The translations under genes were made by a program, and so were the position numbers. A DNA stretch of 64,000 nucleotides from an uncultured bacterium (lineage in GTDB: Bacteria > Fidelibacterota > Marinisomatia > Marinisomatales > UBA1611), in NCBI GenBank assembly GCA_965660855.1, contig CBFIBM010000001.1, forward strand, positions 326,705-390,704, written 5' to 3'. How positions within the stretch are numbered: the first letter of the stretch is position 1; each line of letters begins with the position of its first letter. The notes under the pieces were generated by a model. That model made no database searches. It was not told the DNA's origin and saw only the letters and a program-made list of their open reading frames with translations. Of the stretch, positions 7,791 to 48,455 are shown piece by piece.

Positions 7791-9010
7791 GCTCATCTAA
7801 ATCTATATCCATGGAAAATGGAAAATTAATTGTTCCAGATAATCCAGTTATTCCATTTATTGAAGGAGATGGGATTGGTCCTGATATTTGGAGAGCCTCT
7901 GTTAAAGTTTTCGATGCAGCAGTTAATAAAGCTTTTCACGGAGATAAAAATATAGAATGGTTAGAGGTCCTTGCAGGTGAGAAAGCATTTGAAGCTACAG
8001 GTGAGTGGTTACCTCAAGATACATTAGATACAATTACAAAGTATAGTGTCGCAATAAAAGGCCCTCTGACAACCCCAGTTGGAGGAGGTATTCGGTCTTT
8101 AAATGTTGCTTTGAGGCAGAAATTGGACTTATATGCCTGTGTACGTCCAGTAAGATGGTTTAACGGTGTTCCATCACCAGTGAAAGAACCAAACTTAGTT
8201 GATATGGTTATATTCCGAGAAAACACTGAGGATATATATGCTGGAATTGAATGGATGCATGGTAGTGAAGGCTTGGAAAAAGTGAAATCATTTTTAATGA
8301 ATGATATGGGTGTTACAAATATTAGATTTCCAGATACTGTAAGTTTAGGTGTAAAACCTGTATCTAAAGAAGGTACGGAAAGAATTGTTAAAGCAGCAAT
8401 TGAAGACGCCCTAAAACATAATCGTAAATCAGTCACCCTAGTACACAAAGGGAACATTATGAAATATACTGAAGGTGGATTTCGAGATTGGGGATACCAA
8501 TTAGTAAAAAATGAATACTCTTCTGAAGATCTTGACGGTGGGCCGTGGCAAACTATACGTAGGAACGGTAAAGAGTTAATTGTAAAAGATGTGATCGCAG
8601 ATGCATTTTTACAGCAAATTTTACTAAGGCCAAGTGAATATGATGTTATTGCCACATTAAATTTAAATGGAGATTATATCTCAGATGCTCTCGCAGCTAT
8701 TGTCGGAGGTATAGGCATTGCTCCAGGTGCTAACATTAATTATGTTAGTGGTCATGCTATTTTTGAAGCAACTCATGGAACAGCTCCAAAATATGCTGGA
8801 AAGGATCAAGTCAACCCAAGCTCAGTCATCCTTTCAGGCGTTATGATGTTAGAGTACCTAGGGTGGCAAGATGCTGCTGATTTAATTGTTAAAGGGATTG
8901 AAGGTGCAATTTCAAATAAACGGGTAACTTACGATTTTCATAGGCTAATGGAAGGTGCAACAAAGTTAAAATGTTCTGAGTTTGGAGATGAAATCATATC
9001 AAATATGTAA
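7787..9010 (+). CDS. icd: NADP-dependent isocitrate dehydrogenase
   Basis: 407 aa prokaryotic-type IDH. Recognisable stretches include [32 protein letters not shown] and [13 protein letters not shown]. Confidence 0.95.
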
Positions 9011-18345: not shown

Positions 18346-20034
18346 CTACTTCATTAAAATAATCTTTTTAGTATCGCTAAATGAACCCGCATCAAATAAT
18401 ATGAAATAAACTCCACTGGAATGATTACTTGCGTCCCATTTTTGCAGGTATTTCCCTTCGTTAAATTTTATATTATTTATTATCTGAAATATTTCGTTTC
18501 CCTTTATATCAAATATTTTAAGACTTACCATTTCTTGTTTGTGTAATTGAAATGGTATGTTCACCACTGGATTAAAAGGATTTGGGTAAGATATATTTAA
18601 TGAGTGCTGTTTTGGATAAATCGATGAATTATCATTGTTTAATGTGAACTCAAAGTTAAAGGGTTCTCCTAAATCATGACTCAAGGTAGATCCAAAATAA
18701 CCGGAAACCTCTAATTCTGAAATATTAATAATTTCAAATTCAGAGGTTAAATTGTCATCAGAGTATGTTAATTGAGTTAAAAGTCCCTCACCTGGTGGTA
18801 TTGGATTTCCAAAGTATTGTGAAAGTCCAACAACTAATCCAGCATCATTTGTGGAAATAGTCCAACTTTCTTCTTCGGCTCTTCCACCAGATCCACTAAG
18901 GATGGGAATTGATGAGAGCGTGTTTTCTTCATCTGTTAAAAAAGAAATTTTAAATTGAAATCCATATATTGGTTCATAATTCATTAAGTATATATCTATT
19001 GTTTTATTCATGGTGTTTTGTGCAATAATCTGGAATGAAGCATCTGCATTAGAAATCATTTCGTCACTGTAAACTATCAACTGTGATTCAATAAAATAGA
19101 ATGGTTCAGTATGACCGTTATAATTATAATTACATTCCGCACAGGTTACACCATCAATACACGCTGGATTATTAGGCGAACATGCGTTAAAATAATCTTG
19201 AAGTACGTAATCTAGTTTAATATTTGATCCAGCATTTATGTAATCGAGAAGATTAAAATCTTGAGGAGTTACTTTATCACCCGGACAGAAACCAGCTCTA
19301 TCATAAATCCAAGTACCATTTTGGGGAGAGCAGTTATTACTTTCACAATCAGACCTCCATATGTTATGAATAAAAGTAGGTTCATCATTTATATTTATAT
19401 CATGTATTTTGTAGGAAAACTCTGCTGCATTATCTGTGTTCCCCTGTCCATGACCTGTTGTAATCATCCTTAAATTACTCGCTAAAGCATTTGAAGGTAT
19501 ATATCCATTGTAAGAAGGTATATCAATAGGGTTTGTATTATCCCCATATACTAAATTGGAGTAATTCCATACTTTTCTAATTGAAGTATAAGCGTAATCA
19601 GGATTACCAACAATAAAATCAAAAGAAATTGAAACAAGCCAACCAGGGTCTACCCATGTATCAATGTATGATCTTAAAATTACATCTCCTATTAAAAAAG
19701 ATCTATAATCGGATACGTTTAGTGACCATCCACATTCAACACCATATGGAGTCACATATCTACCAATTTCAAACCAATCATCACGATTATTAACAGAGAT
19801 TTGAGCTTTTCTATCCCAAGGATCACAGCCACCATTTGGACATTCAAGATTAATATTCATAATGATTTCTGAAAAATGTGTGGTATGATTTGGAAATGAT
19901 ATTGTATCAGTAAAAACCCTATTATTTCCAGAGTTTCCAAAAAAGTGATGCACTCTATCCAGAGCAACAATGGTTGTGTCTCCTTTGAGGTTTAAAAATT
20001 GAAATAGGAATATTATGAGAATATATTTTTTCAT
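18346..20034 (-). CDS. Secreted PNGase F-like (peptide-N-glycosidase F family) protein with T9SS C-terminal sorting domain
   Basis: Signal peptide present. ECPNGGCDPWDRKAQISVNN..WFEIGRYVTPYG, SFDFIVGNPDYAYTS, AAEF and YDRAGFCPGDKV resemble PNGase F as I recall it (ECPNKTCDEWDR..., DFDIVYGTPDYKYS, CAEW, PDRAGWCPG). The C-terminus YPNPFNPVVNIPFQL...KKIILMK is a type-A T9SS CTD. Confidence 0.75.
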   Translation of the reverse strand: MKKYILIIFLFQFLNLKGDTTIVALDRVHHFFGNSGNNRVFTDTISFPNHTTHFSEIIMNINLECPNGGCDPWDRKAQISVNNRDDWFEIGRYVTPYGVECGWSLNVSDYRSFLIGDVILRSYIDTWVDPGWLVSISFDFIVGNPDYAYTSIRKVWNYSNLVYGDNTNPIDIPSYNGYIPSNALASNLRMITTGHGQGNTDNAAEFSYKIHDININDEPTFIHNIWRSDCESNNCSPQNGTWIYDRAGFCPGDKVTPQDFNLLDYINAGSNIKLDYVLQDYFNACSPNNPACIDGVTCAECNYNYNGHTEPFYFIESQLIVYSDEMISNADASFQIIAQNTMNKTIDIYLMNYEPIYGFQFKISFLTDEENTLSSIPILSGSGGRAEEESWTISTNDAGLVVGLSQYFGNPIPPGEGLLTQLTYSDDNLTSEFEIINISELEVSGYFGSTLSHDLGEPFNFEFTLNNDNSSIYPKQHSLNISYPNPFNPVVNIPFQLHKQEMVSLKIFDIKGNEIFQIINNIKFNEGKYLQKWDASNHSSGVYFILFDAGSFSDTKKIILMK

Positions 20035-21461
20035 TTCAGAAATAAAATTTTATTAGTAAGGATATTTTCTCCATCTGACAATCGGATAATATATGTTCCA
20101 GAGCTAACATTCATTGGCTTCCATGAATAATTGTAAGAGCCTGATTTTAAATGTTCATCAATTAACACATGAGTTAGCTGTCCATTAATATTATAAATAT
20201 GAGCTTTTATATTTTTATCTGATTTTAAGCTAAAAGATATGTTGCAAATTGGGTTAAATGGATTTGGTCCAGATTTCAATTTATATAGATTTGGAGAAAG
20301 AATTTGTTTAGCTTTTACTAAGTTTTTACCCCACCCTCCTAAAGATATTTGCTTAATTTCATTCTTTAGTGGCATTTTCAGATTAAAGCTAGATGGTAAA
20401 GAAGATCCATCCAAAGAAAAACCTATAATCTTTTTCCCTTTTTGGGTCCAGCTCCAATTAGAGGGTAATCCATCATAGGAAATTAAACTTTCATTTAATA
20501 ATTGTATTTCAAAACCTAAAATTTCACCATTCGATTCCAAATGAATGTTGTTATTTTGTTTAAAAAATTCAGCTTCTGTCAAAATGGTTCTATTCGTTAT
20601 ATTTATTTCTAAAACTAATTGAATTATTGTAATAACATCAATTATATCAATTGACCCATCTTGATTGATATCGGATGCATAAACTTGTAATGGCGATCCA
20701 ACTTCATATCCTAACATTATAGATACTAGCATAACAGCATCATAGATATTTATTGATTCATCAAAGTTTATATCACCTAAGATACCAGATAAAGAATGTC
20801 CATCAACCCAACTTGGTGAACCGCGTAATAAACCATAATGACTATTGTTAGAATGATCAAAGAGTGTATCACCAGTTCCTTCATCGAAAGTATAATATGC
20901 AACTAAACCCTCTTCATTTCCTGTAAGACTTTGATCTATGAATTGATTAATCTCCTCTGAAGTTCTTGATATATTCCATAATCGTACTTCATCTATTCGT
21001 CCGCTAAAAAATCGGCTACTATAATCTGAACCAATTCTAAGAGGATTATTATTTGATGTAACATTTAGGGATGTTCCTGAGAGGTTATATTCTGAACCAT
21101 TTATATATAATTTTCGAGTATTTTGATTTTTTACTGCCGCAATATGGTACCATTGGTTTGCATTAAGAATACCAGTATTTGTAGTTGCCTCATCAAAACT
21201 TAAGCCTGTATATGGTGCTTGGTCTGTAAGCCTTAATAAATAACCATTTGCTGCGCTAGATTGATATTTTGATACAATTCCACTCAGCCATGAAAATTCT
21301 TCCGGAAATATCCATGCTTCAATTGTGTAATTTGAAGTAAGATCTAATTGATTATGATCTGATATTAAGACGTAATCATTTATTCCATCAAAATCTAACG
21401 ATTTATCTTGGCACAATAATAGATTGTAAAGAAATAAGCTAAGAGAAATATAACATTTCAT
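20031..21461 (-). CDS. Secreted LamG/concanavalin-like lectin domain protein with dockerin-like repeats and T9SS CTD
   Basis: LamG signature: DFDGINDYVLI...YTIEAWIFPEE...GRIDEVRLWN. Two dockerin-type Ca-binding repeats: GDINFDESINIYDAVMLV and SDINQDGSIDIIDVITII. C-terminus GPNPFNPICNISF...KILFLK. 4 nt overlap with the downstream PNGase F-like gene. Confidence 0.8.
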   Translation of the reverse strand: MKCYISLSLFLYNLLLCQDKSLDFDGINDYVLISDHNQLDLTSNYTIEAWIFPEEFSWLSGIVSKYQSSAANGYLLRLTDQAPYTGLSFDEATTNTGILNANQWYHIAAVKNQNTRKLYINGSEYNLSGTSLNVTSNNNPLRIGSDYSSRFFSGRIDEVRLWNISRTSEEINQFIDQSLTGNEEGLVAYYTFDEGTGDTLFDHSNNSHYGLLRGSPSWVDGHSLSGILGDINFDESINIYDAVMLVSIMLGYEVGSPLQVYASDINQDGSIDIIDVITIIQLVLEINITNRTILTEAEFFKQNNNIHLESNGEILGFEIQLLNESLISYDGLPSNWSWTQKGKKIIGFSLDGSSLPSSFNLKMPLKNEIKQISLGGWGKNLVKAKQILSPNLYKLKSGPNPFNPICNISFSLKSDKNIKAHIYNINGQLTHVLIDEHLKSGSYNYSWKPMNVSSGTYIIRLSDGENILTNKILFLK

Positions 21462-24728: not shown

Positions 24729-25580
24729 ATGAAGAAAGAACTTAAATTCTTAAAACTTACATTACTAATTGCTTTAATATCATTCAGTTGTGAAGATACA
24801 GAAATAAATAGAAATTTTAGTTCAGTTCCAACTGTTTTTACAAAAAAAGTTCTATTAGAAGAATTTACAGGTTCATGGTGTGGATACTGTCCAGATGGAG
24901 CAGAAAGACTGGAAGAGTTAGTCAATGATTATGATGTAGTCGGTGTTGCCATTCATTCTCAGGATGCTATGGAAATACAACATGGAGTATATCTTGAAGA
25001 AGTTTATCCAATGTCTGGTTACCCTGGTGGTATGGTTGATAGAATTTCTTATGAAGGGTATGTGGGGCATAATAGAGGATGGTGGTCATGGCTTGCTGAT
25101 CAGCAATTACAAAAAAGTGCAGTTTGTGGTCTGGCTATAAATTCTCAAGTTAGCGGTGATAAAGCAAATATTGAGGTTAGGTATGCCTTTAATACTGAAG
25201 TTATATTAGAAAATCATAAATTAAATGTTTACCTAGTGGAGGATAATGTTCAAGGAGAAGGATATGGTTTCGATCAACGAAATTATTATAATTCCGATAC
25301 TTCAAGTACTTTCTTTAATCAGGGCGACCCTATCATAGGGTATCTACATAATAATACACTAAGAAATGCTATCTATCCAAATTCACTTGGGGAATCATTG
25401 TTTGAAGAAAGTTTAACCAATATGGCTTTTGCAAGTTTTTTTCAAATAGATATATCAAATTATAATAAAAAAAACTTGAAAGTTGTTGCTTTCATTACAA
25501 AGGTTGGAGAAAGCGTACTTGATCATGAAGTTCTTAACGTTCAAAAATGCGATGTTGATGGATTTCAGGACTGGGACTAA
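24729..25580 (+). CDS. Omp28-related thioredoxin-like lipoprotein
   Basis: Lipobox ISFSC. VLLEEFTGSWCGYCPDG matches the Omp28-family EEFTG.WC..CP motif. Confidence 0.7.
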   Translation: MKKELKFLKLTLLIALISFSCEDTEINRNFSSVPTVFTKKVLLEEFTGSWCGYCPDGAERLEELVNDYDVVGVAIHSQDAMEIQHGVYLEEVYPMSGYPGGMVDRISYEGYVGHNRGWWSWLADQQLQKSAVCGLAINSQVSGDKANIEVRYAFNTEVILENHKLNVYLVEDNVQGEGYGFDQRNYYNSDTSSTFFNQGDPIIGYLHNNTLRNAIYPNSLGESLFEESLTNMAFASFFQIDISNYNKKNLKVVAFITKVGESVLDHEVLNVQKCDVDGFQDWD

Positions 25581-26711: not shown

Positions 26712-28865
26712 ATGTTTAATTTAATTAAACTATTTATTGTACTGTTTTCCCTAAATCTTTTCGCAAATACTCTGAATGTTTCAGTGAATGGTAACAATGA
26801 AACTGGTGATGGTTCATTCGATAATCCATACGCTACAATTCAAAAAGGAGTAGATGAAGCCAGTCCAAATGACACAGTTTATGTATTTGACGGAATATAT
26901 GATGGAGGAATTATCATCAATGATAAACCACTGACCTTGCTTGGGCAATCCAGAGAAGAAACAAAGATTAATATTATTAGAAGTACCCCCCAAATTTCTA
27001 TTATAGATGTTCAAGATGACATGGTTAAAATTGCTAATTTTAGGATTAAAAGAGGTAGTTCAGATCGTGGGGGTGGCATCTATTCAAAAAATTCAAAGGT
27101 AATGATCAGTAACAGTGATTTTTCACATAACATTTCTAGTTCAAATGGTGGGGCAATATATGCTGATCGATCAGAAATTGAAATTGATAACTCTTTATTT
27201 TTTCTAAATTCATCAGACTCTCTTGGTGGCTCAATATATGCTCACAAAACAAAATTAGTTCTTCATGACCTAGAATTACGAAATAACAGTGCAGTGGCAG
27301 GTGGTGCTATTGGTTTAGATACTCTATCTCATTGTTTAGTAAATAATTCTGAAATCTTTAATAATGGCGCGAATGTAGGTGGTGGAATTGCCGTTTTTGA
27401 TGGTGGTAAGCTTAGTATTCTAAATTCAGATATTTATGGTAATAATGCAAATGCCGTGGGAGGTGTAATTCCACAACACTCTGATCCAGATAATTTTCCA
27501 TTGTATGGGGGTGGTGGCGGTTTATATCAACAGTTCTCTGATAGTTTAATTATTAAAAATTCTAACTTTGATAATAATACGGCACCCACTGGGATAGGTG
27601 GTGGCCTTGCTATCTATTATAGTAAGGATATTGAATTAGAAAACGTAAATATTAATGGCAATGAATCAGGCGGAGCTGGAGGTGGTATTTGTTTTTTACG
27701 TTCAGATTATATTAATTACAATGGTGGTGTAATTAGAGATAATAGATCAAATTCTAACAGTGGTGGAGGTATCCATTTAGGAACCGAATCTTTTGATGCT
27801 TCAATTATAGTTAATGCTACATTTAGTAGATTAGATTTTATTAATAATTATGCACAGGTTGGAGGTGGTGGTCTAATGTTATGGTCAGCCCGAGTGAATG
27901 TCTACAACTCAACATTCTCTCAAAATGAAGCAAATGATAATGATGGAACCTCTAGTTGGAGCGGTGGTGGTTTATCATCTCACTCCGTAGCTGAGCCAAA
28001 TATAATAAATTCTATATTTTATAATAATTATCCCAACTCATTACATCATCCATCTACAACTTCAAACATGAGCGTAAAGTATTCTCTTCTTGAAGAGTTT
28101 CATAGCGGAGTAGAAAATCTTATTGAGATTGATCCTCTATTCAAAGATCCCGAAGGTGGCGATTTTACTCTGCAACCAAATAGCCCATGTATTGATGCTG
28201 GGATGTCTGATTTTGATTATGATGGTATTGATGAAATCAATGATTATTTAGGTTCAGCTCCGGATATGGGTTCTACCGAATTTATGCTCGATCCCCCATT
28301 GGGTTTTAACGGATTTATATTAGATTCATCTGTAGTTCTAACTTGGTTACATATTACAGATCCAGGTTTTCAATACTATAAAATTGAACAATCGAATGAC
28401 TCTTTATTTAATGACGAAGTATTAGAGTTATATATCACTGAGAATACACATACCACTGAAAACCTTAATTTTGATTCAACGTATTTTTTCAGAGTTTCTG
28501 CATTTGTTGGATACTGGACAGATTATTCTCCAGTATTAGCTTTTACTCTTGAAACTTTAGAATTGGAAAAGAACATGTTACATGCTCAGGAATTTAATGT
28601 AAGTCAAAACTTCCCAAATCCATTCAATCCAATTACTTCGATTCAATATACCATACCAGTAAATGGATTTGTAGATATCATTATTTACGATATGAAAGGT
28701 AGAGTGGTAAAAAACTTAAAGAGTGATTATGAAGTTGCAGGAACCAAATCTATTCGGTGGAATGCAACAGATAACTTCGGTTCGTCTGTTCCTACTGGAA
28801 TGTACATTTATAGTGTCAAAGCTGGACCATTTCTGAAAAATACAAAAATGATTTTACTGAAGTAA
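26712..28865 (+). CDS. Secreted right-handed beta-helix protein (Pmp-like GGAI/FxxN repeats) with FN3-like domain and T9SS CTD
   Basis: Signal peptide. Numerous GGAIY/GGSIY/GGGI/GGGL repeats paired with F..N/N.A turns. C-terminus NFPNPFNPITSIQYTIP...KMILLK. Confidence 0.8.
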   Translation: MFNLIKLFIVLFSLNLFANTLNVSVNGNNETGDGSFDNPYATIQKGVDEASPNDTVYVFDGIYDGGIIINDKPLTLLGQSREETKINIIRSTPQISIIDVQDDMVKIANFRIKRGSSDRGGGIYSKNSKVMISNSDFSHNISSSNGGAIYADRSEIEIDNSLFFLNSSDSLGGSIYAHKTKLVLHDLELRNNSAVAGGAIGLDTLSHCLVNNSEIFNNGANVGGGIAVFDGGKLSILNSDIYGNNANAVGGVIPQHSDPDNFPLYGGGGGLYQQFSDSLIIKNSNFDNNTAPTGIGGGLAIYYSKDIELENVNINGNESGGAGGGICFLRSDYINYNGGVIRDNRSNSNSGGGIHLGTESFDASIIVNATFSRLDFINNYAQVGGGGLMLWSARVNVYNSTFSQNEANDNDGTSSWSGGGLSSHSVAEPNIINSIFYNNYPNSLHHPSTTSNMSVKYSLLEEFHSGVENLIEIDPLFKDPEGGDFTLQPNSPCIDAGMSDFDYDGIDEINDYLGSAPDMGSTEFMLDPPLGFNGFILDSSVVLTWLHITDPGFQYYKIEQSNDSLFNDEVLELYITENTHTTENLNFDSTYFFRVSAFVGYWTDYSPVLAFTLETLELEKNMLHAQEFNVSQNFPNPFNPITSIQYTIPVNGFVDIIIYDMKGRVVKNLKSDYEVAGTKSIRWNATDNFGSSVPTGMYIYSVKAGPFLKNTKMILLK

Positions 28866-28903: not shown

Positions 28904-30124
28904 ATGTTAATGTTTAGACATTCTATGAAGATACTATACAAAATTCCTTATCTTGCATTTTTAATAAGTTTGTTGCAATCTCAGGATGATTATAGTTTGG
29001 AGGATATTAATACAAACTCAACATCTTACGGAGACTCCATTGGAATTTCTTATTTTGAAAATAATGTAGTTATCCACTATTTTGGTCATTTTTATTGAGG
29101 GACTTGCACTGCCAGGTTTGGACAGTTAAATAGTCTATACGATGATTTTAAGTCTCAAGGTTTGAACATAGAATTAGTTGGAATTGGTAAAGATAGTCAT
29201 CTTAGTAGTTTAAATAACTGGATAAGCGGAAACTCTGCACCTATTGTTGCAGATGAGAGCCCATTCAATGTTTGGAATAATTGGAACGCAGGACAAAGAG
29301 AAATGTTTATTACGGACTTAAGCGGTAATATTGTTTTTCAAGAAAATATAACAAGTGGTATTCCGGATACTCTTGAAGGATTTTTGTTAGATTTATTATC
29401 ATATAATAGTCCAAGCCTTTGTGAGTTAGGTGATGTGTATGTTTCAGAAGCTCATAACTCTGGAGACCCTGAAGATTATATTGAAATCTATAACTCAACT
29501 AATGAGGATTGTTCTCTTGAAGGATTTCAACTGGATGATTCAAGTTTATTAGATGATTTTACATTTGGAGAAGTTATTCTTTCTGCAGGTGGATACTGGG
29601 TTGGATACGAAGATGACGATGATAGTTTTAGTTCGGGATTAAGTTCAGACGGTGATTCAGTTGTCTTTGCTGACCCTTCTGGTAATTATATAGTGAATAT
29701 CTTAGGACCATCAGAAGAATTCGAAGGGACTTCTTTGACTCACAATTTTTCATCTGATGGAGAGGCTTGTTATTCATTACCATCTCCGGGGTTGGATAAT
29801 GAAGAGTGTATTGTTTTAAAAGTAGATAATAATAGCCATTTAATTAGCACCTTTACATTATTTAATAATTACCCTAATCCATTTAATCCTAAGACTACAT
29901 TTCAATTTAGTTTGGAATATAAAAATTATATAAACATTAATATTATTAACCTTAAAGGCCATGAGGTAAAAAAAATATTAAGTAAAAAAATGGAACCTGG
30001 TATATATTCCATTACATGGAATGCAACAGATAATAACAATGTCATAGTCCCTTCTGGAGTTTATTTTTATAAAGTTCAATCAGGAGCCTTCCATAAAACA
30101 AAAAAAATGATATTAATAAAATAG
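28904..30124 (+). CDS. Candidate selenoprotein: signal peptide - TlpA/redoxin-like domain with U-G-T-C motif (in-frame TGA 29096-29098) - lamin-tail domain - T9SS CTD
   Basis: ORFs 28904..29098 and 29162..30124 share one frame and are separated only by one TGA plus 21 sense codons. The read-through junction is VVIHYFGHFY-TGA-GTCTARFGQLNSLYDDFKSQGLNIELVGIGKD, which matches the redoxin fold with TGA at the first CxxC Cys. The LTD motif is VYVSEAHNSGDPEDYIEIYNSTNEDCSLEGFQL. The CTD is NYPNPFNPKTTFQF...KMILIK. The alternative reading is a recent nonsense pseudogene. Confidence 0.6.
29099..29136 (+). promoter_or_regulatory. SECIS-like bipartite hairpin immediately 3' of the in-frame TGA
   Basis: Lower stem is GACU(29101-29104)/AGUC(29132-29135). 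Upper stem is ACUGCC(29108-29113)/GG-a-CAGU(29120-29126) with a bulged A. The apical loop is AGGUUU, with its GG about 19-20 nt after the U of UGA. Hand-folded; no energy was computed. Confidence 0.45.
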
Positions 30125-44230: not shown

Positions 44231-45562
44231 ATGTCTAAAGTTGAAATAACAGGTTATGGTGATGATTTAACTGTAAATGGAATAAGAATTGGAGATCTTA
44301 CTCCTTCTCAGCATGAAAAAATAGAAATGGATAAAGGTGGACAAAATTATTCACCATTAGAGGATGTTGTTGTCTCTAAAGTAAAAGATTCTTCAACATT
44401 AATAGCAAGAAAACCTGATCCAAGTGATATAAGTAAATACATTGAATCTGATCTCTTAGATGGGCTTTGTTGTTACTCAGCTGTTAATCAAGGGCAACTT
44501 AATCAAACTATAGTGGATTCTGTCATCCATCATTTAAAGAATGAAAAGCTACCTACAGTTCCCAGGTCCATAAGACATAAATATATGAGTGCATTTTTAT
44601 TAGCAGCAACTGGAATTTCTGATATGGACAAAGTAGTACCTAAAGTTGCTGGTGTGGAATCTTGGGAGCTTACATTTAAAATTTGCAGGCGATGGGGTTA
44701 TATGGTTAAAGGAATCCCTAAAGATCAAGGTATTATGGTTGGAGCTACAGGAAACTTTCATGGAAGATCACTTGCGGCTGTTTCTATGTCTGATGATCCG
44801 GATTCTAGAAAAGGGTTTGGTCCATTTGTTCCTGGAATTGAACTAGTAAAATTTAATGATATAGATTCCCTAAAATCTTTATTTGAAGAAAAAGGTGATA
44901 GAATCGCAGCTTTTATGGTTGAACCTATTCAAGGAGAGGCAGGAGTTATCGTTCCAGATGATAAATATCTGCCTCGAGTTTCCGAATTATGTAAAAAATA
45001 TAACATATTACTAGCCGTAGATGAGGTTCAAACTGGATTTGGAAGAACTGGTGCACATTTTGCACATCAATTATATAATATCAAACCTGACATTATGGGA
45101 TGTGGTAAAGCTGCCGGTGGAGGAATTTTACCAGTATCCTTTGTTGCAGGTAGAAAAGAGGTTATAGATGTGTTAACCCCTGGAAGCGAAGGATCTACTT
45201 TCGGTGGATATCCACTAGCATCAGTTGTTGGTACTTACGCTATTAAAGTTTTGATTGATGAGGGTTTAGCGCAAAATGCCAAGGAAAAAGGTCAAAGGTT
45301 ATTGCAAAATTTAGAAGAAATTAAATTAAATTATCCAGATAAAATTATGGAAGTAAGGGGTAAAGGTTTATTAACGGCATTTGAGATGCATAATGAAAAA
45401 CATTTAGATGGACATGCAATATCTGTTGGTCTGTTGGAAAAAGGTGTATATGCTAAAGAGACACATCATACTACTGTAAGAATTGCACCAGCTTTAACAA
45501 TTTCTAATGAACAAATTGATATCTTATCAGAAACTATAAATGCAGTTATAAAAGGATTATAA
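44231..45562 (+). CDS. Class III aminotransferase, ornithine aminotransferase-like (divergent)
   Basis: [36 protein letters not shown] and a PLP-Lys in GCGKAAGGG. The N-terminal third is more divergent (AGVES in place of the TGAEA-type motif). Confidence 0.75.
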
Positions 45563-45566
45563 CAAA

Positions 45567-47084
45567 ATGAGTATATTAGAAACTTTAGGGATTAAAGAAC
45601 TTAATTATGGGGCTTGTTTCGGTCCAGATGGATGGATAAATACTAAAAATAATGGAAATATTATTTCTACAAACCCAACAAATAATCAGGAAATTGCATC
45701 TGTAAATAACTGTAGTATAGAAGATTATAAACTAGTAGTTAATAAATCACTTGAAGCACAAAAAGAGTGGTCTAAAGTTCCTGCGCCTGAAAGAGGACAA
45801 TTGGTCAGAAGAATGGGAAATGCTCTTCGAGATTACAAGGATCCATTAGGTAGTTTAGTCTCCCTAGAAATGGGGAAAATTAAACAAGAGGGAGATGGCG
45901 AGGTTCAAGAGATGATCGATATAGCTGACTTCGCTGTAGGTCAATCCAGGATGCTGTACGGAAAAACCATGCATTCTGAAAGAGTTGAGCATAGAATGTA
46001 TGAGCAATGGCATCCAGTTGGAATTGTTGGTGTTATAAGCGCATTTAATTTTCCAGTTGCTGTATGGAGTTGGAATGCTTTTATTGCTGCTATCTGTGGT
46101 AATTCAACAATCTGGAAACCTTCTCCATCTACGCCACTATGCGCTATAGCAGTGCAGAATATATGTAATGAAGTTTTATCTGCGAGTAATATGCCTAGCA
46201 TTTTTAGTACTGTGATAGGCCCTGGATCAGTTATAGGGGAAGAAATGATTAATGATAAAAACATATCATTAGTCTCTTTTACGGGATCAACAAAAGTTGG
46301 AAGGCATGTAAATGAAATGGTTTCTAAAAGGTTTGGAAAAGTAATTTTAGAGTTAGGAGGAAATAACTGTATAATTGTAGATGAAAGTGCAGATATGAAT
46401 TTAGTAATTCCTGCTATAGTTTTTGGTGCTGTCGGAACTGCTGGGCAAAGATGTACAAGTACAAGACGTGTTTTAGTGCATCATAGCAAATATAATGAAT
46501 TAAAAACGAAGTTAATTTCTGCCTACAAACAGGTGAATATTGGAGATCCACTTGATCCAGACACACTTATGGGACCGTTAGTAGATGCAGCTGCTATTGA
46601 TAATTTCGAAAAAGCTATAACAAGAGCTAAAAAATTAGGTGGAGATGTTATCTATGGAGGTGATAAACTCAATCTTGGGGGTAATTTTATTAATCCGACT
46701 ATCATAAAAGCTGAAAACGATTGGAAAGTTGTCCAAGAAGAAACGTTCGCCTCAATTTTATATTTGATGACATTTGAAAAATTAAAAGACGCTATTTTTT
46801 TACAAAATGATGTTCCTCAAGGCTTATCTTCTTCTATTTTTACTTTAAATATCAGAAGTGCCGAATTATTTTTATCTTCCCAAGGTTCAGATTGTGGAAT
46901 TGCTAATGTTAATATAGGCACATCTGGGGCAGAAATTGGTGGAGCTTTTGGAGGTGAAAAAGAAACTGGTGGTGGAAGAGAATCTGGATCGGATAGCTGG
47001 AAACAATACATGCGTAGACAAACAAATACAATTAATTGGAGCAAAAAACTCCCTTTAGCTCAAGGTATTAAGTTTGATATTTAA
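45567..47084 (+). CDS. Aldehyde dehydrogenase, ALDH7/piperideine-6-carboxylate (aminoadipate-semialdehyde) dehydrogenase-like
   Basis: ELGGNN and GQRCTSTRR (catalytic Cys), EETFASILY, and an N-terminus typical of antiquitin-type enzymes. Located next to lat. Confidence 0.85.
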
Positions 47085-47102
47085 TTCAACTATAGGATAT
47101 AA

Positions 47103-48455
47103 ATGCAGGTAAATTTTAAAAATACAAGAGAAATCATCTCTAAACATATGCTTGCGGACGGAATGTCTCCTGTAATAGACCTTGAAAAAAGCCATGGATC
47201 GTGGCTTGTTGATGGTAAAAGTGGAAGAAAGTATTTAGATCTATTTTCTATGTTTGCATCTATGTCCATTGGTTACAATCATCCATATGTATTATCTCAG
47301 AAAGAAAGATTAGCCAATGCTGCAATTAATAAGCCAACAAATTCAGATATATATTCACCTGAGATGGCAAAATTTGTTAATACATTTTCAAGAATAGCAC
47401 AACCAGATTACTTACCATATTCGTTTTTTATTGAAGGTGGTGCATTAGCGGTTGAAAATGCTTTAAAAGCAGCTTTTGATTGGAAGGTTAGACTTAACCT
47501 GTCTAAAGGAAAAAGAGAGCAAGGGAATAAAATTATTCATTTTAAAGATTGTTTTCATGGGCGGTCCGGGTATACTATGTCTCTTACTGACTCCCCAGAT
47601 CCCAGAAAAGTTCAGTATTTTCCAAAATTTGATTGGCCCAGGGTAAGTAATCCAGCTATGGTTTTTCCTCTAAATGATAGGAATCTTGACCTCGTTCGTG
47701 AAAATGAGAAAATTTCTATCGATGAAATAAAAAATATAATACATAATTCTGCAGATGATATAGCAGGTTTAATTATTGAACCAATTCAAGGCGAAGGCGG
47801 TGATAATCACTTTCGAAAAGAGTTTTTGATGAAACTTAAGGAATTATCGCTAGAAAATGACTTCCTTTTAATTTTTGATGAAGTTCAAACTGGGATTGGT
47901 ATTACAGGAAAAATGTGGGCTCATCAGAGGTTTGTTGATAATAATTGTTCAATTGGATGTAAAAGCTTTTGTAAAAAAGTCATTCCAGATCTAATGAGTT
48001 TTGGAAAAAAGACTCAAGTGTGTGGAATATTAGGTGGAGAAAGATTAGATGCTATAGAAAATAATGTTTTTAAAGAATCAAGTCGTATAAATTCTACTTT
48101 TGGTGGCAACCTGGTCGATATGGTTCGTTTTACAATTTATTTGGAAGTAATTGAAAATGAAAACCTTCTTCAAAATGCCTATGAAAACGGAAAATATTTA
48201 TTAAAATCAATTGAAACTCTTGAAAATAAATTTTCAGGTCTTGTTTCAAATTCAAGAGGGAAGGGTTTATGGTGTGCTTATGATCTCCCAGATCCTAATA
48301 CACGAGATCGTCTTATTGAACTCATCCATGAAGAGGGAGCTATTATACTTGGTTCTGGGCACCGATCAATTCGATTTAGACCACATCTAAATATTACAAA
48401 AGAAGAGATAGATATAGCAGGAGATATGATGAAATCTGCTCTATTAAAACTTTAA
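47103..48455 (+). CDS. lat: L-lysine 6-transaminase (lysine epsilon-aminotransferase)
   Basis: NKPTNSDIYS, FFIEGGALAVENALKAAFDWK, FHGRSGYT, KFDWPR, EPIQGEGGDNHFR, LIFDEVQTG and FGKKTQVCG closely resemble LAT sequences as I recall them. Confidence 0.85.
   Translation: MQVNFKNTREIISKHMLADGMSPVIDLEKSHGSWLVDGKSGRKYLDLFSMFASMSIGYNHPYVLSQKERLANAAINKPTNSDIYSPEMAKFVNTFSRIAQPDYLPYSFFIEGGALAVENALKAAFDWKVRLNLSKGKREQGNKIIHFKDCFHGRSGYTMSLTDSPDPRKVQYFPKFDWPRVSNPAMVFPLNDRNLDLVRENEKISIDEIKNIIHNSADDIAGLIIEPIQGEGGDNHFRKEFLMKLKELSLENDFLLIFDEVQTGIGITGKMWAHQRFVDNNCSIGCKSFCKKVIPDLMSFGKKTQVCGILGGERLDAIENNVFKESSRINSTFGGNLVDMVRFTIYLEVIENENLLQNAYENGKYLLKSIETLENKFSGLVSNSRGKGLWCAYDLPDPNTRDRLIELIHEEGAIILGSGHRSIRFRPHLNITKEEIDIAGDMMKSALLKL

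Follow-up and report, generated by a model that had tools for sequence, protein, structure and literature searches.

A predicted selenocysteine-containing redoxin with a type IX secretion signal, from the Prx-like 2 family, in a Marinimicrobia (SAR406) bacterium

The 'Prx-like 2' predicted selenoprotein was described in 2008 from the GOS ocean metagenomes (Zhang and Gladyshev, PLoS Genet, PMC2398784). At that time it was represented by single reads only and no sequenced prokaryotic genome had a strong homolog, and its authors considered it a very distant homologue of peroxiredoxins (Prx), with 100 Cys homologues (PMC2398784). The sequences read ...HYFGHFT-U-GTC-TARFGQLNDLY..., where U is selenocysteine (Sec). 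Some reads carry a fusion to a lamin-tail domain, others a ...NFPNPFNP... tail of the type IX secretion system (T9SS), and one fusion was named 'distant Secretin_N' (PMC2398784). The wider family is covered by the NCBIfam domain model NF053656 ('TUGYCR motif thioredoxin fold (seleno)protein', release 20.0), with extracytoplasmic proteins that have Sec or Cys at one and the same column. Most of the core proteins in it are lipoproteins, come from lineages of higher GC content (e.g. Myxococcota), and many are Cys forms.

More distant likenesses are found among other thioredoxin-fold proteins. ResA, TlpA, CcmG (DsbE) and StoA (cd02966) are extracytoplasmic and have their dyad at the start of helix α1. 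The peroxiredoxin and Prx-like thiol:disulfide oxidoreductase selenoproteins (PF00578) share the common thioredoxin fold and carry TxxU or UxxC, and a catalogue from 2026 lists a UxxC selenoprotein that is broadly similar in kind to the one presented here. The catalogue also contains outer-membrane and other extracytoplasmic bacterial selenoproteins. The N-terminal domain of vertebrate selenoprotein P (PF04592) is likewise an extracellular UxxC thioredoxin-like module. The type-A cargo of the T9SS, in the FCB group, combines an N-terminal signal peptide with a C-terminal Por_Secre_tail/TIGR04183 domain. In the literature, no account was found of a T9SS cargo with a selenocysteine redox domain, and nothing was found for TUGYCR, for a selenoprotein together with type IX secretion, or for Marinimicrobia together with selenocysteine.

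The gene under study occupies positions 28904–30124 of the forward strand in a 64-kb stretch of DNA (the window); all features below lie on this strand. As had been noted from the sequence alone (hereafter, the sequence-only reading), two ORFs, 28904–29098 and 29162–30124, share one frame and are parted by a TGA (29096–29098) and 21 sense codons. Frame and translation agree with this description. Read through the UGA, the gene has 406 codons, ends with a TAG stop at 30122–30124, and has the junction ...NNVVIHYFGHFY[TGA]GTCTARFGQLNSLYDD... The true start is probably the ATG at 28925 (MKILYK...) rather than 28904, because homologue L004 (MKVLLK...) begins at the equivalent position. The stretch 28904/28925–30124 is best explained, with a probability of about 0.85, as a single intact gene from a bacterium of the Marinimicrobia (SAR406), in which UGA would be decoded as Sec and whose product would be exported.

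By its sequence, this gene belongs to Prx-like 2, a family known since 2008 as a prediction. BLASTP aligns it with the GOS sequence JCVI_READ_1367439 at 60% identity over 253 residues (E 1e-114), the alignment reaching into the lamin-tail region, and the '#Prx-like 2' entries of Dataset S1 contain the strings GTCTARF, HYFGH and UGTCT (PMC2398784). Both have the same U-G-T-C, and the family as gathered here shares with the GOS sequences the UxxC motif with occasional UxxU, the marine enrichment, a weak similarity to SelP_N, and the fusions. The sequence-only reading had taken the architecture for unusual. This claim of novelty fails, as the protein is 60% identical to a published Prx-like 2 sequence with the same U-G-T-C and a lamin-tail fusion. 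What is new is the assignment to Marinimicrobia/SAR406, the full-length surface-display architectures with a lamin-tail domain (LTD), a T9SS C-terminal domain (CTD) or a dockerin, and the analysis of the SECIS. With NF053656, whose cut-off is 100, the window protein reaches 96.3 bits (E 1.5e-27, residues 28–151), a narrow miss by 3.7 bits that leaves homology in no doubt. The family members L028 and L114 pass with 116.9 and 106.5 bits, and P0001 and P0004 reach 99.9. The T-U-G-Y-C-R motif itself is absent, the window protein having Y-U-G-T-C-T-A-R and a distant Sec form (L112) S-U-S-Y-C-R. GOS_C (NF045500) was rejected as the family identity, being absent from the NCBIfam matches at E values up to 1.

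The domain order proposed by the sequence-only reading, signal peptide, redoxin with UxxC, lamin tail and T9SS CTD, was recovered in full from the 406-residue translation. A Sec-type signal peptide, MKILYKIPYLAFLISLLQSQ (28925..28984), is predicted by inspection, with a basic n-region and an 11-residue hydrophobic core. The mature protein would begin near DDYSLEDIN, and a ...GQ|YDYSLEDxN boundary is conserved in the homologues. It is followed by the thioredoxin-fold redoxin domain (residues 28–151, 28985..29356), matched by NF053656, AhpC-TSA, Thioredoxin_8 and Redoxin. The AhpC-TSA match (PF00578) is borderline: where the cut-off is 26, the entire protein scores 25.9 bits and the isolated domain 28.9. 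The LTD (PF00932, residues 176–263, 29429..29692) is found with an E value of 4.5e-12 and 46.8 bits (cut-off 34.3). The type A CTD (residues 323–403, 29870..30112) scores 29.1 with PF18962 (cut-off 27) and 36.5 with TIGR04183 (cut-off 23). With a CTD above both cut-offs and the signal peptide seen by inspection, the protein has the features of a T9SS type-A cargo, and at least three other genes in the window bear a CTD. Other family members have the T9SS tail only, a dockerin-like tail or no tail, and the redoxin module would be extracytoplasmic in every one of them. In the proposed pathway, the signal peptide would direct the protein across the inner membrane via the Sec translocon, and the type-A CTD would then lead it through the T9SS to the cell surface. 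We infer this export route and surface location, as well as the catalytic chemistry, substrate and electron donor considered below.

The structure prediction and a search of 1.84 billion proteins were run on the exact database sequences, which have W at the Sec site. The top Foldseek matches are ResA, DsbE, StoA and DsbF (E 2e-7, TM-scores 0.57/0.69), and ResA, DsbE and StoA are also the best matches in the PDB profile search (E 1e-3). The profile alignment places the U on Cys74 of ResA and the C on Cys77. The fold match noted from the sequence, to redoxins of the TlpA/ResA type with the TGA on the first Cys, agrees with these results. The AF2 model, of moderate confidence (pLDDT 69.6, from a 9-sequence alignment), shows a thioredoxin fold with the dyad at the N-terminus of α1. 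The cis-Pro region of ResA (SPlPTTF) lies opposite ...SQ.RDLF... (Q-R-D), which has no proline, in a stretch where the alignment is weak and the model uncertain. The window protein differs from ResA, TlpA, CcmG and StoA by an identity below 20%, by Sec instead of Cys, and by its surroundings, as neither a CcdA/DsbD partner nor a cytochrome-maturation context was found near the gene. The whole protein falls just short of the peroxiredoxin model (PF00578), at 25.9 against 26, and its motif HYFGHFYUGTC lacks PxxxT. From the Prx selenoproteins it is set apart by the absence of the PxxxTxxC motif, and the homology is very distant. Membership in the glutathione peroxidases (GPx) was rejected (Pfam E 0.02–0.1). 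The likeness to selenoprotein P is weak, with one precomputed weak match (P0130) and two of 34 members matching SelP_N at an E value of 0.031 or worse. This similarity is below significance, and the Sec-rich C-terminal tail is absent here.

In the mechanism considered, Sec65, at the N-terminus of α1 in a ResA/TlpA/Prx-like thioredoxin fold, would be the attacking nucleophile, and Cys68 would resolve the intermediate as a selenenylsulfide within U-G-T-C. The preferred activity is that of an enzyme which reduces or isomerises the disulfides of extracytoplasmic substrates, with peroxide reduction a close second. In the latter case, decoding and export would be the same, and H2O2 or an organic hydroperoxide would oxidise Sec65 to a selenenic acid, to be resolved by Cys68 in the manner of atypical 2-Cys Prx or of thioredoxin-dependent GPx. 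Several observations point this way. The GOS authors regard the family as homologous to Prx, though very distantly (PMC2398784). AhpC-TSA is the most frequent Pfam match (31 of 34 members), the profile and Foldseek matches over the active-site helix include structures of plant GPx5 and fungal GPx, and a Cys-form relative is called 'peroxiredoxin family protein' by PGAP. An invariant Arg in ...QRDLFVLD..G may also correspond to the Arg motif of Prx. However, the motif is UxxC, without the PxxxTxxC of Prx, the best structural matches (ResA, CcmG, StoA and DsbF) are disulfide oxidoreductases, and the GSHPx Pfam model stays far below threshold. A peroxidase is on this evidence possible but rather unlikely. 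No DsbD/CcdA-type partner adjoins the window gene or is conserved across loci, and an all-vs-all BLAST of the flanking ORFs from 16 loci revealed partial synteny only, with no conserved neighbour and no reductase that might supply a surface redoxin with electrons.

Homologous loci were gathered with a query built from the region 3' of the TGA only. As the codon was excluded from the query, the resulting set of 111 loci is unbiased for TGA. All 111 have TGA at the same column, with redoxin-domain identities down to 37% (median 55%). The question left by the sequence-only reading, whether orthologues carry TGA or TGY, is thereby answered in favor of TGA, and the signs of decay it had looked to are not seen: each of 66 complete homologous ORFs contains exactly one in-frame stop, and no locus is otherwise disrupted. 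Invariant residues occur on either side of the TGA; those 5' of it are D10, N12, S15, F36 and G37, and Arg108, Trp82/100/103, Gln107 and Asn124 are invariant too. Together with the 66 single-stop ORFs, this indicates that both sides of the codon are translated. The resolving Cys68 (TGC, 29105..29107) is invariant in alignment A3, and among 106 unique genes its codon is TGT in 69 and TGC in 36; in one relative (L113), a second TGA takes its place, giving UxxU. At the column of the TGA itself, distant homologues have CxxC (P0059, P0068, P0073, P0105, P0125 and others), so that Sec and Cys are paired at one position. The reading of TGA 29096..29098 as Sec, residue 65 and first position of the redoxin UxxC, which was the central claim made from the sequence, is strongly supported by the 111 TGA codons and the Cys homologues at the same column, and from these we infer that Sec is actually inserted.

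The putative Sec codon is followed by a bacterial SECIS-type stem-loop, ACUGCCA/GGUU/UGG(A)CAGU (29108..29126), identified by its invariant apex, its covariation and a recoding control. The apical GGUU (29115–29118) stands at +19 to +22 counted from the U of UGA. According to the published criteria, a bSECIS has a loop of 3–9 nt whose two leading nucleotides include a G, a stem of at least 4 bp, a spacing of 16–37 nt and an MFE of -7.5 or lower. The window hairpin, with a 16-nt spacing, the GGUU loop and -14.9 kcal/mol, falls within these bounds, whereas only 52 of 86 family sequences pass all four criteria when folded globally. RNAfold recovers the window hairpin with an MFE of -14.4 kcal/mol (z -2.56 against dinucleotide shuffles). 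No consensus structure was returned by RNAalifold for the 86-sequence alignment; support was drawn from counting the pairs explicitly, with slid and shuffled alignments as controls, and from synonymous recoding.

G19, G20 and U22 are invariant in the 86 sequences, and U21 is found in 85. The Arg codon at +18 to +20 is CGG in 69 sequences and AGG in 17, never AGA, while the background usage for Arg is 54% AGA, 3.6% CGG and 17% AGG. Elsewhere in the hairpin, TTC is used in 67 of 86 (15% in the background) and GCC in 50 of 86 (9%). The pair 17–25 is CG in 50 sequences, UA in 19 and UG in 15, and A18 faces U23 in all 17 cases. Paired cells amount to 77.6%, compared with 18–42% when the partners are slid, and the covariation score is 0.219 against 0.04–0.10, a value reached by none of 500 shuffles. 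The thermodynamic and covariation support that the sequence-only reading had proposed to look for is thus found. Upon synonymous recoding, the MFE changes from -7.8 for the real sequences to -2.4 kcal/mol for the recodings (mean z -3.44), and the hairpin, present in 83 of 86 real sequences, is formed in 37% of the recodings. The distant Sec forms L112 and L114 have the same register and a GUU loop on different, fully compensated stems.

A bipartite hairpin had been proposed from the sequence, and both arms do exist in the window: GACT 29101–29104 with AGTC 29132–29135, and ACTGCC 29108–29113 with GGaCAGT 29120–29126, the GG being at +19/+20. Only the upper stem-loop is conserved. The conserved element does not include the outer stem GACU/AGUC, its inner pairs (5–39, 6–38 and 7–37) being formed in 7 to 39 of the 86 sequences. 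Conservation of the hairpin is also partly protein-driven, as much of it overlaps highly conserved codons. At the Rfam gathering threshold, only three tRNAs are found in the window, and in permissive mode the match to SECIS_4 is insignificant (E 3.2; 13 bits, where the gathering score is 38). The expectation that the hairpin would accompany TGA alone is not cleanly upheld. It is absent from two of three Cys-form genes examined and is kept by the third (L117), perfectly and in the same register, so that it is not exclusive to TGA forms; in L117 it may be a fossil SECIS or have another role. In the proposed mechanism, the hairpin at 29108–29126, with its GGUU apex 19–22 nt past the UGA, would act as a bacterial SECIS and bring SelB-GTP-Sec-tRNA(Sec) to the ribosome, so that translation would go on instead of terminating.

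Near-cognate suppression or an alternative code could instead place Trp, Cys or Gly at the UGA, with the hairpin as a generic stimulator of read-through. The Sec machinery was indeed not found in the window. None of 20 ORFs of suitable size is selA, selB or selD, all being housekeeping or other genes; the three genes were also not found in the fetched flanks, and neither the window nor 27 flanking loci yielded a tRNA-Sec. Public gene callers give W by applying code 4, and the Cys-form gene that retains the hairpin could be taken in the same sense. Yet each of the 676 codons for Trp counted over 106 unique genes of the family is TGG, and TGA is the terminator of 6 of 80 family genes and of 5 of 30 long ORFs in the window, as had already been remarked for other genes here. 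TGA is consequently not a sense codon for Trp. It is present at one column only, where distant homologues have Cys, as is the signature of Sec/Cys exchange, and the hairpin fits the bacterial SECIS consensus with the loop G at the expected distance. Moreover, the genome of one member is on record with SelD, SelA and SelB: locus L028, which carries a TGA member, comes from the single-cell genome SCGC AAA003-L08, listed as Sec-utilizing (defined by SelD/SelA/SelB) with 5 known selenoproteins. Read-through with another amino acid is thus very improbable.

Termination at the UGA would yield a 64-residue peptide and a separately initiated protein, from TTG 29162 or a later ATG, and most public annotations split the gene in this manner. 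Such a split would cut the thioredoxin fold between β1 and α1, at the active site, and leave a downstream product without a signal peptide yet with a T9SS sorting domain. The 21 codons that separate the TGA from the next start belong to the best-conserved part of the protein (GTCTARFGQLN), and the positions of the downstream starts vary between homologues. Two separate genes are very improbable. The pseudogene raised as an alternative by the sequence-only reading, or an assembly or sequencing error, would take a single transition from TGY or TGG to TGA in this genome and agrees with the window alone, but its probability is negligible given that TGA stands in all 111 loci, which are independent, were drawn from many different samples, assemblies and single-cell genomes and go down to 37% identity, without frameshifts or further stops.

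With the TGA read as Sec, nearly every public annotation of these genes is wrong, either splitting them at the TGA or placing a spurious Trp at the active site through code 4, and a true selenocysteine codon was recognised from letters alone, without tools. SAR406, or Marinimicrobia, is among the most abundant bacterial groups of the deep ocean. It is tentatively suggested, at somewhat short of an even chance, that these bacteria display a Sec-redoxin outside the cell, anchored by a T9SS CTD, a dockerin-like tail or a lamin-tail spacer, that it acts on extracellular substrates without an obvious periplasmic reductant, and that it is probably one of several secreted UxxC selenoproteins in the phylum; the last point is made probable by the noticing of a second, W-U-P-A-C family. 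The extracellular substrates may be peroxides, disulfide-bonded organic matter or metalloids. If this is true, the protein would be the first T9SS-secreted selenoprotein described and, in its logic, a bacterial counterpart of the extracellular selenoprotein P, and it would tie the ecology of SAR406 to the availability of marine selenium. For the biogeochemistry of marine selenium and redox processes, a surface selenoenzyme would be moderately interesting if experiments confirmed it.

No other credible gene with an in-frame TGA was found in the 64-kb window. On the contig of another family member (L027), a second candidate, W-U-P-A-C, was observed that is unrelated to the redoxin.

In the window, TGA at 29096-29098 on the forward strand lies between two ORFs of the same frame (28904-29098 and 29162-30124), with 21 sense codons separating it from the next possible start. 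Read-through gives a product of 406 residues containing ...NNVVIHYFGHFY-[TGA]-GTCTARFGQLNSLYDD.... The N-terminal region has a thioredoxin fold (AhpC-TSA, 25.9 to 28.9 bits, cut-off 26; also Thioredoxin_8 and Redoxin), followed by a lamin-tail domain (residues 176-263; 46.8 bits, cut-off 34.3) and a T9SS C-terminal sorting domain (CTD; residues 323-403; PF18962, 29.1, cut-off 27; TIGR04183, 36.5, cut-off 23). Pfam and NCBIfam agree on this architecture, which had been proposed in the sequence-only reading. The true start is probably other than the ATG at 28904 (MLMFRHSM...); the close homologue L004 starts (MKVLLK...) at the equivalent of the ATG at 28925 (MKILYK...), and a start there would provide a typical signal peptide. 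In this window of about 30% G+C, TGA is also an ordinary terminator, closing 5 of the 30 long ORFs. As frame, domains, hairpin arms and stop usage were all verified, the original observation was accurate.

The UGA at 29096-29098 very likely encodes selenocysteine (probability about 0.9), as argued by the conservation of the TGA, its pairing with Cys in homologues, and a SECIS element. Homologues found by protein search are 46-55% identical to the window protein and all have 'W' at the TGA position; under the standard code this is an in-frame stop in the DNA, so the gene callers had applied code 4. In syntenic close relatives on Tara contigs, the gene is split at the same codon. To avoid bias toward the codon, genomes and metagenomes were scanned with the region 3' of it only, yielding 24 loci in the former and 80 in the latter, the best of 181. 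All taxon-labelled genome loci are from Marinimicrobia ('Neomarinimicrobiota'), the others being labelled just 'bacterium'. All 111 loci that could be scored, window counted, have TGA as the codon immediately before G-x-C, and none has TGY, TGG, TAA or TAG there. Each of the 66 unique complete ORFs has exactly one in-frame stop and no further lesion. Redoxin-domain identity across the family ranges from 37% to 100% (median 55%), and D10, N12, S15, F36 and G37, 5' of the TGA, are invariant in the family alignment (A3). Since residues are conserved on both sides of the TGA, protein-level selection acts on both sides.

These data rule out a pseudogene born of a nonsense mutation, the alternative offered in the sequence-only reading; the comparisons of orthologues proposed there, for TGA versus TGY and for decay, both came out on the side of a selenoprotein. 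The two-sided selection likewise excludes two separate genes meeting at the TGA and, with the TGA recurring at all 111 loci, a sequencing error. TGA as a plain sense codon for Trp is ruled out, as Trp is TGG in 676 of 676 cases in 106 unique family genes, TGA is among the terminators (TAA 49, TAG 25, TGA 6), and in-frame TGA is confined to one column.

Searching 1.84 billion representatives with a profile brought up 312 relatives. Many of these are incomplete, stopping at profile position 55-56 or starting after position 60, the trace left by splitting of the gene at the TGA. The closer site-spanning relatives have a code-4 'W' at the Sec column, and TGA was confirmed in the DNA of the three checked: L112 (S-U-S-Y-C-R), L114 (T-U-G-T-C-R) and L113. 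Remoter relatives have a genuine Cys there, as CxxC, e.g. ...WYFGHANCGYCSAQF... and ...YYFSSVHCGTCQVRF..., in keeping with the claim that the TGA occupies the first Cys of a redoxin motif. Such Sec/Cys pairing at one column is the usual mark of a true selenoprotein family. Public collections misrepresent these genes in two ways, either breaking them at the TGA or translating them in code 4 with a spurious active-site Trp (loci L001-L003, L112-L114 and L118, and many protein entries), a systematic annotation artefact of low-GC metagenome contigs. The L113 gene (479-1156; ENA LUOE20-1 scaffold_81292) carries a pair of in-frame TGAs spaced by three codons (G-U-A-G-U-T, UxxU) and encodes a dockerin-like C-terminus; its hairpin has an AGUU loop at +19 to +22, counted from the second UGA. 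A similar 'WxxW' occurs in the translations P0126, P0128 and P0137.

The hairpin arms following the UGA lie where the sequence-only reading had placed them, and the region has a folding energy of -14.4 kcal/mol, with z = -2.56 relative to dinucleotide-shuffled sequences. The window hairpin agrees with the bSECIS criteria summarised in PMC13188914. The family was compared as 86 unique sequences in codon register, the U of UGA being position 0. At the apex, G19, G20 and U22 never vary, and U21 is found in 85 of 86. The Arg codon at +18 to +20 is CGG (69) or AGG (17), never AGA or CGH, whereas the window's own genes use AGA for 54% of Arg, CGG for 3.6% and AGG for 17%. TTC is used in 67/86 (background 15%) and GCC in 50/86 (background 9%). 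The stem, in which 12/13-19 pair with 23-29/30, is 7-8 bp long, and G20-U21-U22 form its cap. The window belongs to the AGG-UUU class, where A18-U23 closes a GGUU loop and A26 is bulged; A18 goes with U23 in 17/17, both changes being synonymous. Pair 17-25 is C-G (50), U-A (19) or U-G (15), and pair 16-26 takes five standard pair types. In the alignment, 77.6% of stem cells pair, against 18-42% with slid partners, and covariation scores 0.219, compared with 0.04-0.10 in controls; none of 500 shuffles reached the observed values. Because protein conservation could mimic hairpin signals, each peptide was synonymously recoded 100 times with window codon usage. The minimum free energy was -7.8 kcal/mol for real and -2.4 kcal/mol for recoded sequences (mean z -3.44), the hairpin being found in 83/86 and 37%, respectively. 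The remote Sec forms L114 (GGAAUCG/CGGUUCC) and L112 (GAAGCCA/UGGCUUC) keep the register and the GUU loop with stems that differ from that of the main family (CUGCCCG/CGGGCAG).

RNAalifold gave no consensus structure for the family hairpin, just 52 of the 86 sequences passed all bSECIS criteria in the global fold, and the match to Rfam SECIS_4 was below significance. The proposed hairpin is upheld in its arms, thermodynamics, covariation and recoding behaviour; its outer stem lacks conservation in the family. Nor is the hairpin exclusive to TGA forms. Of three Cys-form genes, L115 and L116 lack it, and L117 (406-993; P0159, C-P-I-C-R) still has one, GCGCUCA/GUU/UGGGCGC, with a perfect stem of 7 bp and in the register of the Sec forms; it may be the fossil SECIS of a recent Sec-to-Cys replacement.

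An AF2 model of the redoxin domain has moderate confidence (pLDDT 69.6). Foldseek, run on this model, and a PDB profile search both place ResA, DsbE/CcmG, StoA and DsbF nearest, with Prx-like and GPx structures ranking lower; the Sec aligns to Cys74, the nucleophile of ResA. Family members differ in their C-terminal part: T9SS CTD alone (about 255 aa), lamin-tail domain plus CTD (about 395-406 aa, including the window protein), dockerin-like tails, no tail, or longer forms. All are predicted to be extracytoplasmic, and members of the wider family are mostly lipoproteins. From the ResA-like fold and these extracytoplasmic forms, we infer that the window protein would be a surface-displayed UxxC selenol/thiol oxidoreductase. 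The activity favoured for it is reduction or isomerisation of disulfides, peroxide reduction being the main alternative. No conserved adjoining reductase was found at the family loci. SCO1/SenC is matched by 25 of 34 family members (best E 1.5e-4) and SelP_N, weakly, by 2 of 34 (E 0.031 or worse); P0130 (L116:15-437) has a precomputed weak match to Pfam SelP_N. One Marinimicrobia MAG, SI037_bin34 (JABHHG01), has two paralogues on separate contigs (L024, U-G-T-C; L029, U-S-I-C), which shows diversification of the family within genomes.

The decisive comparison for novelty is the GOS selenoproteome. There, Zhang and Gladyshev (2008) described 'Prx-like 2', a family with UxxC and some UxxU motifs that comprised 99 sequences with Sec and had 100 homologues with Cys; it was enriched in marine data, weakly SelP_N-like, and found in domain fusions. 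Their Dataset S1 holds sequences with ...HYFGHFTUGTCTARFGQLNDLY..., some Prx-like 2 sequences running on into a lamin-tail region or T9SS tail. The window protein is 60% identical to one member over 253 residues (E 1e-114). It scores 96.3 bits against NCBIfam NF053656 ('TUGYCR motif thioredoxin fold (seleno)protein'; cut-off 100), a cut-off that every Cys form tested and part of the Marinimicrobia members pass. The family is therefore already known, as a computational prediction. A 2026 catalogue also already includes outer-membrane and other extracytoplasmic bacterial selenoproteins, and the unusualness claimed for the exported protein does not stand. Three things alone are new: the SAR406 assignment, the recognition of the surface-display modules, and the detailed SECIS analysis.

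No Sec machinery was found in the window or the fetched flanks. A TGA member (L028) is carried by the single-cell genome SCGC AAA003-L08, classified as Sec-utilizing (SelD/SelA/SelB definition) with 5 known selenoproteins by Peng et al. (2016), who also reported SelD in three other SAR406 single-cell genomes. On the contig of another family member, L027:8453-9577 (TGA at 8723) encodes ...SMNATW-U-PAC-Y..., with a middle part rich in Cys and a tail resembling dockerin; the TGA recurs in an independent contig copy (L118:527-1081; 2/2 DNA copies). Most of its 159 public homologues begin 'MDELIE...' directly 3' of the TGA, a truncation seen in more than 100 public entries, and the few named entries are hypothetical proteins. 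It is a candidate for another secreted selenoprotein family of Marinimicrobia, unrelated to the first.

Many of the proteins encoded around the selenoprotein gene are predicted to be secreted or at the surface. At least three further window genes carry a T9SS CTD: 18346-20034 and 20031-21461 on the reverse strand, and 26712-28865 on the forward strand, which encodes a 717-aa protein directly 5' of the selenoprotein gene and whose syntenic orthologue in L004 has a Beta_helix Pfam match on record. An Omp28-like gene lies at 24729-25580. Bearing no relation to the selenoprotein, a run at 44231-48455 (ornithine--oxo-acid transaminase, L-piperidine-6-carboxylate dehydrogenase, L-lysine 6-transaminase) for lysine/ornithine catabolism is consistent with an amino-acid-degrading lifestyle.
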